This document shows, piece by piece, positions 20,383 to 31,964 of a DNA stretch of 55,821 nt. The DNA comes from an uncultured virus (IMG/VR IMGVR_UViG_3300027704_001989) (lineage: Duplodnaviria; Heunggongvirae; Uroviricota; Caudoviricetes): IMG/VR virus record IMGVR_UViG_3300027704_001989; one strand, given 5' to 3'. Within the stretch, counting starts at the first letter, position 1. Every line of letters starts with the position of its first letter. Position numbers and translations under genes: made by a program. Under the pieces are notes generated by a model. The model made no database searches. It saw nothing but the letters and a program-made list of their open reading frames with translations, and was not told the origin of the DNA.

Positions 20383-21444
20383 ATGCCAAAGTTATCGTTA
20401 TGGAATCCAACAAAAACAAACGACTTCAATTTTATAGATAGAGTCGTTGGTGAGCACCTGCATGCAGGCGGAACCGGTGTGCATTTGCACAAATACTTAG
20501 GAACGCAGGCACAGGCTAATACAAATGATCCTACAAGACCAGCAACTGACGGCAACAACACAGAAGTGTTTATACAAGATTTGCTGTTTTTAGAGAACAG
20601 GGATCGGCGATACGACAAAAACATTTATGAATTGCGTGGACAATACAACATTGGCGACAATGATGGGTTTGATCTCACACAGTTTGGTATGTTCTTAGCA
20701 AACGATACACTGTTTATGAACTTCCATATCGAAAGTATGGTAGAAGCATTAGGCAGAAAGTTAATGGCTGGTGACGTTTTAGAGTTGCCACATTTACGAG
20801 ACGATTTATTACTAGGCAGTGACGAAGCAATAAACAGATTTTATGTTGTTACTGATGCTAGTAGACCTGCAGAAGGATTTGACCCACGTTGGTGGCCACA
20901 TTTGTGGAGAGTTAAATTAGGTCCTATAACAGATTCACAAGAGTACAGAGATATTCTTGGTACTGGTGAGGAAGAAGGCGATCTTCGTAACCTCATTAGT
21001 ACATACGCAGACGAGATTGCAATTAGCGAAGCTATTGTAGCAGCATCAGAAAAAGATGTTGCACTTGATCCTAGTTATAGAAAGACTGCACATTTATATG
21101 TTGACAAAGATGCAAAGGGCAAACCATCGATTGACTTTGAAAACGAAGATGGAGCACCGCCTAATGGTGCAAGTGTTGTAGGCAGTGGAACATCATTCCC
21201 AACTACAGGCATTAACGAAGGCGATTACTTTTTGCGTACAGACTTTGTACCTAATAGACTATTCCAGAAAGAAGGAACACGTTTCAAGTTTATAAGATCT
21301 AACACTAAAGGTGCATGGTCAGCAGCAAACAAAATACTCACAGGGTTTATTAACAACGATAACCTTGCAGTAAATACAGACGGCAAGATCACGGGCGAGA
21401 AAGTCAATCTCAGCCGGGTAGTTAAGCCAAAGACAGATAACTAA
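20383..21444 (+). CDS. gp14: Neck protein gp14-like
   Basis: LTQFGMFL, AGDVLELPH motifs. Start moved to ATG 20383, 5 nt after GATAAATA (20370-20377). Confidence 0.7.
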   Translation: MPKLSLWNPTKTNDFNFIDRVVGEHLHAGGTGVHLHKYLGTQAQANTNDPTRPATDGNNTEVFIQDLLFLENRDRRYDKNIYELRGQYNIGDNDGFDLTQFGMFLANDTLFMNFHIESMVEALGRKLMAGDVLELPHLRDDLLLGSDEAINRFYVVTDASRPAEGFDPRWWPHLWRVKLGPITDSQEYRDILGTGEEEGDLRNLISTYADEIAISEAIVAASEKDVALDPSYRKTAHLYVDKDAKGKPSIDFENEDGAPPNGASVVGSGTSFPTTGINEGDYFLRTDFVPNRLFQKEGTRFKFIRSNTKGAWSAANKILTGFINNDNLAVNTDGKITGEKVNLSRVVKPKTDN

Positions 21445-21473
21445 TGTTTAGCATTTTTAATAAAGGAAATAAA

Positions 21474-21917
21474 ATGAATAGAGAATCAGTATTTGAACAA
21501 CTGAAAATAGATGAAGGAGTTGTTTATGAAATTTATAAAGACCATTTGGGCTACCCAACTTTCGGAGTTGGACACTTGGTCCTCGAATCAGATCCAGAGT
21601 TTGGACAAGACGTTGGGACACCAGTCACAGAAGAACGAACAAAGCAGTGTTTCGAAAAAGACCTTGACACCAGCATCTCAGAATGCGTTGCATTATATGG
21701 AGATGGTTTCACAGATTGGCCTGGAGTCGTACAAGAAGTCCTAGTGAACATGATGTTCAACATGGGTCGAACACGTTTAGGTAAGTTTAATAACTTCCGC
21801 AAGGCACTAGAAGCTCAGGATTGGAAACAAGCAGGAATCGAAGGCAGAGATAGCCGTTGGCACAAACAGGTTACTAACCGTGCTGAAAGATTAATGGAAA
21901 GACTAGAACAAGTCTAA
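21474..21917 (+). CDS. T4-type lysozyme (GH24)
   Basis: Catalytic triad E-x8-D-x5-T (DEGVVYEIYKDHLGYPT), NMMFNMG, DSRWHKQVTNRA; RBS AAGGA before ATG 21474. Confidence 0.93.
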   Translation: MNRESVFEQLKIDEGVVYEIYKDHLGYPTFGVGHLVLESDPEFGQDVGTPVTEERTKQCFEKDLDTSISECVALYGDGFTDWPGVVQEVLVNMMFNMGRTRLGKFNNFRKALEAQDWKQAGIEGRDSRWHKQVTNRAERLMERLEQV

Positions 21918-21923
21918 GGTATT

Positions 21924-22367
21924 ATGGCAGAAATGAGAGAATTAAACGAACAACGAGTTTGTGAATTATTAAATGATATCATAGAGCTAGAGATGGCCGG
22001 TGTTGTTAGATATGCACATAGCTCATTAATGATTACTGGTCCTTACAGATTACCTATTGTAGCGTTTTTACAAGAACAAGCAACTGAAAGTTTAGCACAT
22101 GCACTACAAGCAGGCGAGTTTATTACAGGATTTGAAGGACACCCAAGTCAGCAAATTTCTAAGATAGAAGAAAACCACGACCATAGTGTATTACAAATTT
22201 TAAAAGAAAGCCTACAACACGAAACAAATGCTGTAGACAAGTACAAAGAACTATTAGAAGAAGTTGCTGATGCAAGTATTATGTTAGAAGAATATGCTAG
22301 AGGACAAATTGGCATGGAAGAACAACATGCATTAGAGATTAAAAAGATGCTCAAGGACTTTGGGTAA
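21924..22367 (+). CDS. Ferritin-like / bacterioferritin-family protein
   Basis: Four-helix pattern LNDIIELEMAGVVRY, ESLAH, HETNAVDKY, EEQH. Confidence 0.85.
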   Translation: MAEMRELNEQRVCELLNDIIELEMAGVVRYAHSSLMITGPYRLPIVAFLQEQATESLAHALQAGEFITGFEGHPSQQISKIEENHDHSVLQILKESLQHETNAVDKYKELLEEVADASIMLEEYARGQIGMEEQHALEIKKMLKDFG

Positions 22368-24805: not shown

Positions 24806-26863
24806 CTACTTGCCTGTGGCAATCATAATGCCGTTCCAATCAACTGGCAAGTCTTGTGTCTTTTGAAACTCGCAACGTTCAATCCACATGTCGTAATAGC
24901 CACACATCTTTCCATCAAAGGTTTTAGATAGTTGATTACATAATTTGATTGCTTTATCAAAGTCTTGGTTACGATAATGTTTATGCATCTGTGCGTGTAG
25001 TTGCTTGCCTTTAACATACTTAGTTCGCTTAATATCCAGTACAGTGTATATTTCTATGCCAACACTTTTACCTTTTACTTGCAAGTCATCTACTTTTAGA
25101 TAAAAGAAATCGTCCTTAGTATGCTTGTATGTGTCCCCACCTACAAGTAATAAGCACCCATACTCTTTGCACTTGCTTTCTATTCTTGCCGCGGTACTAA
25201 CTGCGTCTCCAAGTATGTCATAACTGTGTCTTGCAGTGGAGCCCATTTCCCCAATATAACCGAGCCCAGTATTAATACCAGCACCCATACCAATGGGTGG
25301 TCTGCCCTCTTTAACAATTTTATCATTGAACTGGTCTACTGCCCTGAGCATTTGTATGCCTGTTTGCACTGCACTCTTAGGATGATCCGGATCGTCCATA
25401 GGAGCATTGTGTATGTGCATACTTGCATCGCCAATATATTTAATCACCATACCGTCTGCATCAAGTATAGGTTGCGTAATAGCATCCATATACTCGTTCA
25501 TCATTTTTGTTAAGCCTTGCACATCGTCGCCAAAGCTCTCACCTAGTGGAGTAAAGCCACGCAAATCTGAGAAGCATATACTAACTTCTTTCTTCATGCC
25601 TTGTTTGATTAAGTCTGGATTTTCTTGCAACATTCTAACAACTGTAGGTGAAGCGTAACCGGCAAATTGTTTTTGTATTTCTTGTCGTAATTTAAACTGT
25701 ACCCAAAAGTTATTAAAACTTGCCTGTGTAAATATTAAGAATGTTGCTATTGCAGGATATGTAGCATCAAATAAAACTAAGTTTGCAGTATAAGAATGTA
25801 TACTGTAATATACCATTCCGCCTATAATACTTACTGTAGTAACTAATCCTGCCCATATAGGCAATCTATAGATCGACAAAGCCACTAGTAGCATGCCTAA
25901 TAACGCACACAGAAGCTCTGTAAGCAACGCTAGTTCAGATCTGGTAATGTTACTCCCGTCTATAAAGTTTTGTAGCATAGACGCTTGTATAAGCTGTGGT
26001 AATACGTTGCCTCTGGGTGTGGGTACCGGATTAGCAACGCCTTCTGCACTAACACCCACAATTACGAACTTTCCACCTAAGTCAGGTAGTTCACTCGCTG
26101 TAATGTATTCGTATTCTTCAAACGTGTTATTAAAACGTATATATGCTGTGCCAGCGGGTGTCGTTATTATTGGATCAAACGGCGGTACAGCAAATTCTTG
26201 TATTCCTATTTCGCTAGTCTTTAAATAGTAGCTAGGCTTACCTGTGTGAGCTCTTAACATCTCAATAGCAAAACTAGGATATATCTTTCCCTCTACTCCG
26301 ATTGCTAGAGGGTAAGTTCTTGTTTGATTATCTGGTTGCGGAGCACTTGCTACTACACCTATGCCTGCCGCTGACTTCTCTAGTACTTCAATATTCGTTA
26401 CGAGATTCGGCCATGTCAGCAAGTAGTCCGTAGCGGATACTGGGCCTATCGTTGCTGTACCAATGTGAGGACCTGTACTCTTTATTCCTCTGGAAGATGG
26501 GGTCTGGGACAAAACCACTCCGTTGTCCGACATCCAACTTGACAAAACTGCGTCCCCGCCAAATCGGTCCGTTTCTGGAAACATAATTGTTAAACCAATT
26601 ATTCCAGCGTTCTTGCTCCTCAAATCCGATACTAGTTGTGCTATGTTCTGTCTTGGCCATGGCCATTGTCCCCACTGTTGTAAACTTTGTTCACCAATGT
26701 TTAACACAACAACTTCGTTGCTTTGCTTAACTTCGTCTAATTGTTGCAGTGCATCGAATGTTTGACTGCGTAAACTTTGTATTGGTGTAGGATCAGCAAT
26801 CTTTAATGCCGCTAGTAGAATAATACTTATTGCTACGGCATAACCGCTTAGTAACCATTTCAT
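24806..26863 (-). CDS. CHASE2-domain class III adenylate/guanylate cyclase
   Basis: N-terminal TM, CHASE2 signature GQWPWPR, three TMs, cyclase motifs FSDLRGFT, KYIGDA, GINTG, YDILGDAVSTAARIE, VKGK. Confidence 0.95.
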   Translation of the reverse strand: MKWLLSGYAVAISIILLAALKIADPTPIQSLRSQTFDALQQLDEVKQSNEVVVLNIGEQSLQQWGQWPWPRQNIAQLVSDLRSKNAGIIGLTIMFPETDRFGGDAVLSSWMSDNGVVLSQTPSSRGIKSTGPHIGTATIGPVSATDYLLTWPNLVTNIEVLEKSAAGIGVVASAPQPDNQTRTYPLAIGVEGKIYPSFAIEMLRAHTGKPSYYLKTSEIGIQEFAVPPFDPIITTPAGTAYIRFNNTFEEYEYITASELPDLGGKFVIVGVSAEGVANPVPTPRGNVLPQLIQASMLQNFIDGSNITRSELALLTELLCALLGMLLVALSIYRLPIWAGLVTTVSIIGGMVYYSIHSYTANLVLFDATYPAIATFLIFTQASFNNFWVQFKLRQEIQKQFAGYASPTVVRMLQENPDLIKQGMKKEVSICFSDLRGFTPLGESFGDDVQGLTKMMNEYMDAITQPILDADGMVIKYIGDASMHIHNAPMDDPDHPKSAVQTGIQMLRAVDQFNDKIVKEGRPPIGMGAGINTGLGYIGEMGSTARHSYDILGDAVSTAARIESKCKEYGCLLLVGGDTYKHTKDDFFYLKVDDLQVKGKSVGIEIYTVLDIKRTKYVKGKQLHAQMHKHYRNQDFDKAIKLCNQLSKTFDGKMCGYYDMWIERCEFQKTQDLPVDWNGIMIATGK

Positions 26864-26868
26864 AATAG

Positions 26869-26876
26869 TATTTATC
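26869..26876 (-). promoter_or_regulatory. Late-type promoter GATAAATA (leaderless) of the cyclase
   Basis: GATAAATA-CTATT-ATG, just after a terminator. Confidence 0.8.
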
Positions 26877-26878
26877 GT

Positions 26879-26907
26879 AAAAAAAAGGGCAGTTGCCTGC
26901 CCCTTTT
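26879..26907 (-). terminator. Intrinsic terminator
   Basis: GGGCAG-GCAA-CUGCCC plus U tract. Confidence 0.9.
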
Positions 26908-26909
26908 CG

Positions 26910-27032
26910 TTATTCGCACTCCAAAGGATTTTGTGAACAATATGACCTAATTTGCTTTATTAGCATTTTAATGTCAGTATCATTACTTGCCTTATTCTCT
27001 TTGCGATCAGAGAATAGGCCTAGTCCTTTTTT
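26910..27032 (-). other. Predicted -1 programmed frameshift signal and trans-frame extension of the lipoprotein
   Basis: A_AAA_AAG (27032-27026), 6-nt spacer, hairpin GCC-UAUUCUCU/AGAGAAUA-A-GGC; -1 frame open to TAA 26910. Confidence 0.75.
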
Positions 27033-27301
27033 TCTGGAGTGTCTTGCAATTCGTCGGTTTGTTTGTCTACTTCATTAGCAACAGTTTCTACTGTATTAGA
27101 GGCAATAGTTGCCGCAGTAGTCGCAATGCTTGATGCGTCCTGTAATACGGCAACACTAACTGTGCTAACTGCATTAACTGATCCATCTATTACGCCTGTT
27201 GTAAAAGCCTTTCCACCCTCGATAACTGCTCCAACTGAGGCACACGATGGTAAAAATATAACAAACCCAGAAACTACAAGAGCTTTGAATAATCTATTCA
27301 T
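27020..27301 (-). CDS. Lipoprotein (93 aa short form)
   Basis: Signal peptide ending in a lipobox-like LPSC; RBS AGGAG; GATAAATA at 27349-27356. Confidence 0.8.
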   Translation of the reverse strand: MNRLFKALVVSGFVIFLPSCASVGAVIEGGKAFTTGVIDGSVNAVSTVSVAVLQDASSIATTAATIASNTVETVANEVDKQTDELQDTPEKKD

Positions 27302-27371
27302 ACTCTTCTCCTAGGTTATGTAATAAGCAAACTGCTATATTACGCTATTATTTATCGGAAAATTAGATACG

Positions 27372-27713
27372 TTACCGGTTAAATGGGTGGCCGCCTGCTA
27401 AACTGTGTTGATCGTGTTCAAACAATTGATAGGCTAAAAGTTGTTTGGTTTGGTCGCTATCGGAGGTGTATATTAAATTTAATATGTCGTTTCTGTGTGC
27501 TTCTTCGATTGTGTGAATTAAATCACACCATGCCCAAAATACTACAAAAATAAGCGGTATAAAAACAAGTTTCAGTAAAACTACAGGAAAGAAGTATGCG
27601 AATATTAAAAAGTGTGGCGGTATCAATAATAATTGTACAGATCTCTTATACTGAGAAAGTGCAGTATTGAGCTTATCCTGTGTTACTATCGTCAAGTTTT
27701 TGTTCGTTTGCAT
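27372..27713 (-). CDS. Membrane protein
   Basis: 113 aa with a long hydrophobic stretch. Confidence 0.7.
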   Translation of the reverse strand: MQTNKNLTIVTQDKLNTALSQYKRSVQLLLIPPHFLIFAYFFPVVLLKLVFIPLIFVVFWAWCDLIHTIEEAHRNDILNLIYTSDSDQTKQLLAYQLFEHDQHSLAGGHPFNR

Positions 27714-27873
27714 TGTGCAATTCTTCTAGAATACTGTTTTTGAAGTCTGCGCCATGCCAGTAACTATCTAGGCCGATATCTACCATGAGTGCTACTAATA
27801 CTAATGTTAGTATGAAGCTAAGGTATATGTTTATACCTGCGGATATTTTTAACCACTTGATCATATGTTTCAT
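27673..27873 (-). CDS. Small membrane protein
   Basis: Single TM; ATG 27873 lies 7 nt after TATAAT (probably leaderless). Confidence 0.7.
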   Translation of the reverse strand: MKHMIKWLKISAGINIYLSFILTLVLVALMVDIGLDSYWHGADFKNSILEELHNANEQKLDDSNTG

Positions 27874-27880
27874 ACTAAAC

Positions 27881-27909
27881 ATTATAGTACGAAAATCGTA
27901 CTACGTCAA
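27881..27909 (-). promoter_or_regulatory. Sigma70-type promoter with palindromic spacer
   Basis: TTGACG-17 nt-TATAAT; inverted repeat TAGTACGA-AAA-TCGTACTA at 27885-27903. Confidence 0.8.
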
Positions 27910-31004: not shown

Positions 31005-31964
31005 TTAATCATTCTCATTATCCTCTAAAGCAATTTTGCTATTAGAGGGCTCGTCATTAGTTTCTAATCCTGTGTCAGTACCGTCGACTGTACTTGTTGT
31101 AGTGTCATTTCCCAAATCTAATGGGTAATTTATTTTCCAGAAACTTCTTTCATCTCCTTGCTCTATGAGAGCGTAAACTGCAGCTTCAATTGCTGATCTA
31201 ACACCCCATGTCACACTTTCATTCTCTGTTATACCAGTCTCAATTTCAAGGAGTTTCGTTTCCATATCAAGAAATTTGAATACGTCACTGCTTACCCCAA
31301 CACTGAGAATAGTTTTGTATGTCTGTACATTTAAGATCACCTCACCAGTGAGTACACTGACTGCTCTAAGCGAAACGACTACACTGTCTCGCCTATACCG
31401 GTTAGATGAACCTATACCAAGATAACGAGCACCATTACCGCCGGTCTCAATATTAGAGTCGTAGCCTATAATGCCACCTTCTAATATCACTCCTGCAAAT
31501 AATAATGGTTGTACGTCTTGTTTAGGTGCTTTGGCCGTAGCATAACTATCACGTGTACTACGGATAATTTGTCTTTCTCGCACCAAGTTATCTAATCCGA
31601 ATCCTCTTTCAACAACACGAAACCAAGTGCCTGCTGGATCTGAATCAGCGCCTGCTGCTTTAAGTGCATCTATTAGTAAAGATTTAGCACCTTGTGTTAC
31701 GGCTGTGCTAAAACTTGCCGCTCCGTCTGAACTTAAACGTTGTCCGGTTAAGTCGTCGAATTTATATACTGCTACAATCGGTCTAGTTTCTGCCGGAGGT
31801 AACTGTCTTAATTTTTTGAATGTAGGTAATTCTACTTCTTGTGGTTCTTCTATGCATTCTAGGAAATCAACAGCACAGTTTTTATCTCCTGGTATAGCCA
31901 TGCTGGCGCAACCTGAGAACAACCCTACACAAAATAGTGCTAGTGCTAGGTTTCTCATTATCAA
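31005..31964 (-). CDS. csgG: Curli secretion channel CsgG (lipoprotein)
   Basis: Lipobox FSGC; VAVYKFDDLTGQR, FSTAVTQG, WFRVVER, LVRERQIIR, EGGIIGYDSN, GARYLGIG, KTILS. Confidence 0.96.
   Translation of the reverse strand: MIMRNLALALFCVGLFSGCASMAIPGDKNCAVDFLECIEEPQEVELPTFKKLRQLPPAETRPIVAVYKFDDLTGQRLSSDGAASFSTAVTQGAKSLLIDALKAAGADSDPAGTWFRVVERGFGLDNLVRERQIIRSTRDSYATAKAPKQDVQPLLFAGVILEGGIIGYDSNIETGGNGARYLGIGSSNRYRRDSVVVSLRAVSVLTGEVILNVQTYKTILSVGVSSDVFKFLDMETKLLEIETGITENESVTWGVRSAIEAAVYALIEQGDERSFWKINYPLDLGNDTTTSTVDGTDTGLETNDEPSNSKIALEDNEND

Follow-up and report, generated by a model that had tools for sequence, protein, structure and literature searches.

What does a lipoprotein gene of an uncultured T4-like phage do with a slippery heptamer at its very end, and does the open frame beyond its stop codon belong to the protein? 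The gene lies in a stretch of 55,821 nucleotides (IMG/VR IMGVR_UViG_3300027704_001989; hereafter the window), which is part of a large T4-like myovirus with terminase, portal, tail sheath and tape measure genes and which carries a curli-type cluster of CsgF, CsgG, two curlin-repeat genes, FecR and a CHASE2 cyclase. All features described below are on the minus strand unless stated otherwise. The lipoprotein gene is placed between the curlin and cyclase genes, its immediate neighbours being the cyclase gene and, just upstream at 27372–27882, genes for two small membrane proteins of 113 and 69 aa with no known family; genes for these or similar small membrane proteins precede the lipoprotein gene in 40 of 81 contexts, which include both phage lineages. 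The 0-frame gene (27020–27301) encodes a 93-aa prolipoprotein and is preceded by the Shine-Dalgarno sequence AGGAG (27308–27312). Inspection of the alignment revealed the signal peptide and lipobox cysteine of a bacterial-type lipoprotein: the lipobox, LPSC (27242–27253), has Cys20 followed by Ala, the Cys is present in at least 90% of 33 alignment rows, and lipidation is predicted. Elsewhere in the window, the structural region holds a T4-type lysozyme-like gene and then a ferritin-like gene (21444–22367, plus strand); within the T4-like lineage, the lysozyme family also turns up near the lipoprotein gene, in 19 of 81 contexts.

A sequence-only reading of this locus had proposed a −1 frameshift of the dnaX/IS3 type that gives the lipoprotein two forms, and the anatomy on which it drew is present on the minus strand. 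The gene ends GAA AAA AAG GAC TAG, with the heptamer A_AAA_AAG in frame at 27026–27032, and the 6-nt spacer (27020–27025) is made up of the last codon and the 0-frame stop. Directly behind it follows the 11-bp hairpin with one bulged A (26989–27019), supported by folding and covariation; with its flanks it reaches −15.6 kcal/mol (z −4.4), and none of 200 shuffles was equally stable. The −1 frame (26910–27026) comprises 38 codons and a stop at 26912–26910, 110 nt beyond the 0-frame stop, thereby filling the gap up to an intrinsic terminator hairpin with a U run (26879–26907, z −3.7) that starts two bases further on. Counted out, the two products would have 93 and 92 + 38 = 130 aa, in agreement with the 93 and about 130 aa given earlier. 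The tail consists of a linker, an amphipathic helix and a cap with the motif Y-C-x3-P-x2-C (26916–26942), recognised in the tail alignment as a probable disulfide loop and matching the C-x6-C ending that had been ascribed to the long form.

The main evidence comes from the relatives. A scan of viral contigs confirmed 100 relatives, the best 80 of which were compared (44 distinct; one, L001, is identical to the window). In all of these best 80 of 100, a heptamer lies in frame with its end 0 or 3 nt upstream of the stop, and the −1 frame behind it stays open for 31–37 codons and ends in Y-C-x3-P-x2-C; their +1 frame and read-through yield 4–24 and 0–19 unrelated codons, respectively. An independent search with the tail only returned 57 loci, 55 of which carry the lipoprotein and the heptamer in the correct frame, and also reached a distant clade with tails of 53–64 codons. 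Among 81 distinct 3′ regions (285 loci), 68 have A_AAA_AAG and 6 have G_GGA_AAG, all with a −1 tail; 5 of the remaining 7 lack both site and tail, and in the other 2 the tail follows in +1. Pattern scans that enrich for the +1 layout brought the set to 100 distinct regions (70 with A_AAA_AAG, 9 with G_GGA_AAG, 4 with neither and 17 with a +1 tail), after matches L286 and L296 (of 19) and L309 and L347 (of 43) had been discarded as unrelated DNA; a scan with P0117, which lacks the Lys-Lys end, gave few new loci. Relatives with a −1 tail vary between these two heptamers only, both of which are named as highly shift-prone in E. coli in the review PMC5009743. One or the other occurs in 74 of the 81 relatives, compared with a single case among 602 other distinct gene ends in these loci. 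That a −1 frame stays open for at least 31 codons was not counted as evidence by itself; 227 of those 602 gene ends have such a frame, which there largely reflects overlapping next genes.

In the five tail-less relatives, which are also site-less, a terminator or the next gene lies directly past the stop. Members L102, L105, L107, L270 and L272, without slip site or tail, represent natural short-only controls. Where the tail is present, it evolves as −1-frame coding sequence: over its last 20 codons pN/pS is 0.16 in the −1 frame as against 1.06 and 2.75 in the others (166 non-independent pairs), and stops interrupt 0 of 50 distinct tail cores in the −1 frame but 50 and 44 of them in the other two. 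The Y, C, P and C of the motif are invariant, which argues for selection on the tail peptide.

Stable structure 3′ of the site recurs as well, with z ≤ −2 in 41 of 51 distinct regions when the better of two folding-window lengths is taken (40 shuffles each) and weaker structure, above z −2, in the other 10, e.g. L022, L030 and L055. Within the window's own clade, the hairpin is 89.6% paired across 14 relatives and has 5 doubly changed pairs, compared with 48–56% pairing in slid controls; these 14 were drawn from 18 distinct regions with the window's layout by dropping three shorter hairpins and one near-duplicate. In the distant clade, a long-range stem closes a branched structure and begins 6 nt past the site in 26 of 26 cases. 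An upstream Shine-Dalgarno sequence of the dnaX type, an optional stimulator, occurs in 9 of 41 distinct regions and so is not a conserved feature. The other sequence components of a dnaX/IS3-type signal are found, namely the heptamer, a conserved RNA structure 5–8 nt downstream and a selected −1 ORF without a start of its own, and they are kept across the homologues in which the earlier reading had suggested looking for them. On this comparative evidence, a programmed −1 ribosomal frameshift at the end of the lipoprotein gene is very probable.

The gene looks like a transcription unit of its own, because a TAAATA motif lies at 27354 upstream of it, a leader hairpin follows and a second TAAATA stands before the cyclase gene. 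The first TAAATA (27349–27354), which we take to be a T4-type late promoter motif, is found upstream of 69 of 71 distinct relatives. The 5′ leader hairpin (27320–27343) has a stem with a single bulge and the conserved loop C-AG(U/A)U(G/U)-G, and it is supported by covariation: across 19 leaders, picked from those with the loop motif, 96.8% of cells are paired and 9 of 10 pairs show double-sided changes. A model of this hairpin matched 37 of 53 sources in 553 kb, each time at this leader, with one further match at E 4.4; comparison with Rfam returned no family and sub-threshold terminator-like matches only. The hairpin is a candidate protein-binding operator or mRNA stabiliser. The second TAAATA (26874–26869) and the CHASE2 adenylate/guanylate cyclase gene (26863–24806) together occupy 24806–26874. 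The lipoprotein gene had been described as directly upstream of the cyclase; the cyclase is indeed the next gene, but the terminator and the second TAAATA intervene. RNA contigs from two studies span 26900–27332 and 26893–27355 (the start at 27355 being a loose end) and hence hold leader, gene and tail and end in the terminator. They hint, if weakly, that the late mRNA is monocistronic, since contigs cannot show transcript ends and RNA libraries can hold DNA.

The mature part of the protein is an amphipathic helix. Over 59 distinct sequences of the short form, hydrophobicity peaks at a periodicity of 98 degrees, equivalent to 3.67 residues and to a repeat of 11 residues, with a power of 7.6 versus 0.27 at 103 degrees, and the mature core measures 67 (43 sequences) or 78 (16) residues, i.e. 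lengths one repeat apart. Short form and tail were folded separately: AlphaFold modelled the former as one long helix at low confidence (pLDDT 60) and the tail with a helix at 10–31, the conserved half of which exceeds a pLDDT of 90. Pfam holds no family for the 93-aa protein or the tail, PHROG gave one weak match to a family of unknown function (E 0.003), and the Atlas returned unnamed, entirely viral clusters for the protein (the best named one, DUF6726, at 0.89, below the reliable mark) and no usable match for the tail, whose model found no fold match in the PDB. Weak profile matches to Senescence (3 of 33 members) and Synuclein (1 of 33) had E values of 0.002–0.04. A lipoprotein profile search of 1.84 billion representatives retrieved 49 proteins, among which there is no convincing case of a natural full-length in-frame long form; a separate protein search retrieved 140, the longer ones inspected being N-terminal over-calls. 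There were 0 matches in 50,697 records of cultured phages, and none of 86 candidates from a cellular genome collection was confirmed as a relative. One 88-aa protein, P0148, on a single 1.2-kb contig, joins the lipoprotein's first half to the tail in one frame; half the helix is missing from it, and misassembly is its probable origin.

The explanation that we consider best, and probable as a whole, is that −1 frameshifting yields two co-N-terminal lipoproteins from one late mRNA. Most ribosomes would stop two codons past the slip site and release the 93-aa form. A fraction would pause at the hairpin with two Lys-tRNAs on AAA AAG, slip back by one base and add 38 residues, giving 130 aa. We infer both the two products and their ratio. 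Both forms are proposed to be exported and lipidated on Cys20. Their common part would be a 10-nm helix with an 11-residue repeat, self-associating or lying along the membrane, and the minority long form would add a variable linker, a short helix and a disulfide-loop cap that docks the assembly onto a partner, following the logic of gpG/gpGT.

Could the long form instead be a spanin-like fusogen, as the sequence-only reading had also suggested? The o-spanins are late lipoproteins with cysteines, as is this protein, and small membrane proteins are encoded just upstream in 40 of 81 contexts. However, no transmembrane segment was found in any of 56 tails (top 19-residue hydropathy 1.39, and below 0.5 in 43 of them), so that the protein is not a unimolecular spanin, and there is neither a nested or overlapping inner-membrane partner gene nor a proline-rich composition nor a match to a spanin profile, while some relatives have no tail at all. 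We regard a fusogen as improbable.

A second alternative accepts the frameshift as real but has it act mainly on the dose of a downstream gene, the tail protein being secondary. In many loci, the next gene encodes a secreted DUF5658-like protein (Pfam E 0.006, below the cut-off), an example being L182:668-1216. Its start falls within −8 to +4 nt of the tail stop in 40 of 51 loci (the nearest start was picked, which introduces some bias), a start/stop layout that is that of translational coupling and may indicate it. Of these DUF5658-like proteins, 20 of 32 also have the motif of the tail, as Y/F-C-x3-P-x2-C, which is absent from all other families among the 985 ORFs of the neighbourhoods. Both the start/stop layout and the shared motif speak for the frameshift itself as well. 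Against dosing as the main purpose stand the window, from which the DUF5658-like gene is absent, and many relatives that likewise keep a selected tail with a terminator and no such gene; the invariant Y, C, P and C, too, point to selection on the peptide. Such a purpose is therefore quite improbable, and we return to frameshifting that serves to make two lipoproteins.

Next, the tail might be a separate tiny gene with a start codon of its own, the Lys-Lys end of the lipoprotein then being a protein feature. In the window, an ATG does stand 18 codons ahead of the −1 stop, and in-frame Met is common, occurring in 20 of 56 tails at one alignment column and in 34 of 56 at another. Yet its position is not conserved, some tails lack it altogether and conserved residues lie upstream of it; a peptide made in this way would have no export signal for forming its disulfide; and the heptamer is kept at the codon level, as AAA AAG or GGA AAG, and lost exactly when the tail is lost. 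This leaves a separate gene highly improbable.

Just as improbable is transcriptional slippage on the A run that would join the two frames in the mRNA. The window offers a run of seven A, and polymerase slippage usually takes place on runs of at least nine. Moreover, 9 of 100 distinct regions have G_GGA_AAG with just three A, the two RNA contigs are without insertion or deletion (although contigs drop rare variants), and a hairpin at a fixed spacer of 5–7 nt suits ribosomes.

The arrangement might finally be a homopolymer error in the assembly, which the sequence-only reading had offered as grounds for refutation. The window stretch, or part of it, is present in twenty runs of 15 studies, six of them RNA. 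Over 26600–27800, contigs from four of these runs, two of DNA and two of RNA, are free of insertions and deletions; this comparison used contigs rather than raw reads, and the window may stem from one of the DNA runs, which is near-identical to it. The sole change within the tail among these contigs, at 26979, is synonymous in the −1 frame. In spite of the A7 run at the junction and the existence of P0148, which without half the helix looks like a misjoin, a single true ORF of 130 codons is ruled out for practical purposes by the same site and tail in 79 other loci (among the best 80 of 100), by a conserved 0-frame stop, by the four indel-free runs and by G_GGA_AAG variants that lie beyond A-run error.

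A programmed frameshift remains very probable for members with a −1 tail, and a smaller clade raises the question of slip direction. Three relatives found with no site pattern, L182 and L187 by their tail and L322 by its leader, have the tail in the +1 frame and end GAA GAA AAG AAG stop. A metagenome scan for the GAA_AAG_AAG-stop layout gave 19 matches, 17 of them family members (14 distinct), in which the invariance of the site is largely search selection because the pattern fixed most of it. The members with a +1 tail are L182:480-675, L187, L287–L304 (except L296) and L322. All 17 distinct regions have a −1 frame that runs into a stop after 6 codons and a stem that begins 5 nt past the last Lys codon, as compared with 6 nt in −1 members. 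Their tails are intact over 58–60 codons, have an extra C-x4/5-C pair and evolve with a pN/pS of 0.16 (9 distinct cores), all other frames containing stops; they share no common start codon, L301 having none upstream of the conserved helix. In a tree from a short alignment with a midpoint root, these members group as a single clade (100/98) that arises from within the −1 members, its sister being a −1 lineage too (99/89). Lysine elsewhere in their genes is encoded by AAA 46 times and by AAG 7 times.

For this clade we lean slightly towards a −2 slip, because the first Lys-tRNA can re-pair on AAA and a 3′ structure favours backward slips. In addition, the abstract of PMC3458567 puts the −2 optimum at spacers 1–2 nt shorter than that for −1, there on a eukaryotic-type U6A site. 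An ancestral −1 slip at A_AAA_AAG with the stem at 6 nt would have turned into a −2 slip at GAA_AAG_AAG-stop with the stem at 5 nt, the peptidyl tRNA-Lys re-pairing from AAG to AAA and the second tRNA from AAG to AGA. The weak point of a −2 slip is that the second tRNA would need a G-U pair at the middle position. A +1 slip is not very likely, and some other explanation is unlikely. Excerpts of PMC5009743 describe tail-chaperone genes of different phages that use −1, −2 or +1, a precedent for a change of direction at larger distance; here the change would fall among close relatives of one small family. The joint reading, in which this clade switched from −1 to −2 and the slip both doses a docking form and switches on a coupled Cys-loop exported protein, is tentative, its chances somewhat short of even.

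What the two lipoproteins do can be approached from their neighbourhood. The earlier suggestion of a cyclase or CsgG partner survives in part. A curli or cyclase gene is present in the locus in 45 of 81 contexts (with flanks of unequal length); other members adjoin DNA polymerase, recombinase or helicase genes or follow the major capsid gene, according to labels from sequence reading. In the cultured phages Melnitz and HTVC008M, which carry the curli/cyclase module, the curlin and cyclase genes are direct neighbours, and tblastn found no match to the lipoprotein in either phage. The lipoprotein is hence not a fixed member of the phage curli/cyclase cluster, and its link to the cyclase is loose. 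A link to CsgG is possible, since 3 of 5 records and 6 of 15 others, 9 of 20 in total, have CsgG on the contig that carries the lipoprotein gene; all these records are incomplete, and in some CsgG is 11–16 kb away. Co-occurrence of the two at the genome level is plausible. The phage CsgG of the window (31005–31964) itself has a C-x6-C pair just past its lipobox, as do several relatives, and CsgF has a C-x7-C pair, short disulfide loops being recurrent in the curli module.

From anatomy and neighbourhood we infer that the lipoprotein may, tentatively, be an accessory of an envelope module comprising CsgG, curlin, FecR, the cyclase and the DUF5658-like protein. Receptor blocking or superinfection exclusion is doubtful as a role, as is any other function, and an Lpp-like envelope brace or a delay of lysis is more doubtful still. 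Braun's Lpp is a small abundant lipoprotein with one long helix, and synucleins form 11-mer amphipathic helices. Compared with Lpp, the phage protein has a hendecad rather than a heptad repeat, its members without the slip site lack a conserved C-terminal Lys, and no sequence homology is apparent.

How does this case relate to known frameshifts? E. coli dnaX and IS3/IS911 likewise use A_AAA_AAG, tRNA-Lys and a 3′ stem-loop at a short spacer, and the branched structure of the distant clade resembles the IS911 three-way junction (PMC5009743). Unlike in dnaX/IS3, the shift extends rather than truncates the product, which here is an exported lipoprotein, and there is no conserved upstream Shine-Dalgarno sequence. 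Lambda gpG/gpGT is likewise a late gene with the shift near the 0-frame stop, a short major product and an extended minor one (PMC5009743, PMC10885494), and its G_GGA_AAG occurs in the lipoprotein family too (PMC5009743); however, the lipoprotein shows no homology to gpG, has a lipobox, and its gene does not sit in the gap from the tail tube gene to that of the tape measure. T7/T3 gene 10 and other capsid and tail extensions similarly equip a fraction of an abundant late protein with a C-terminal module (PMC5009743), but these are virion proteins with often Ig-like modules, whereas here an envelope lipoprotein acquires a helical, Cys-capped tail of 31–71 residues. The curli module of HTVC008M and Melnitz (CsgF/CsgG/curlin/FecR/cyclase) is also that of the window, the cultured phages being without the lipoprotein gene there (PMC7029224). 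The excerpted text of PMC7029224 on the phage curli module mentions neither ‘lipoprotein’ nor ‘frameshift’, and ‘lipoprotein’ is likewise absent from that of PMC5009743 and PMC10885494; a search of the openly accessible literature found no published frameshifted phage lipoprotein among the papers listed.

The −1 mechanism is thus a textbook one, and it is the gene class that is new. Known phage frameshifts are mostly those of tail chaperones and virion proteins, and the present case would add to these an exported lipoprotein of the cell envelope, encoded by marine myoviruses that are widespread, and exposes a conserved protein module that gene callers have missed in every member. The family also constitutes a natural series, with two heptamers for the −1 slip, 3′ structures of three kinds, members that have no signal and a clade with the tail in another frame, and it is therefore suited to testing how the direction of a slip on bacterial ribosomes depends on site and spacer. 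If true, the switch of slip direction would put the spacer-tension model to a natural test in bacteria.
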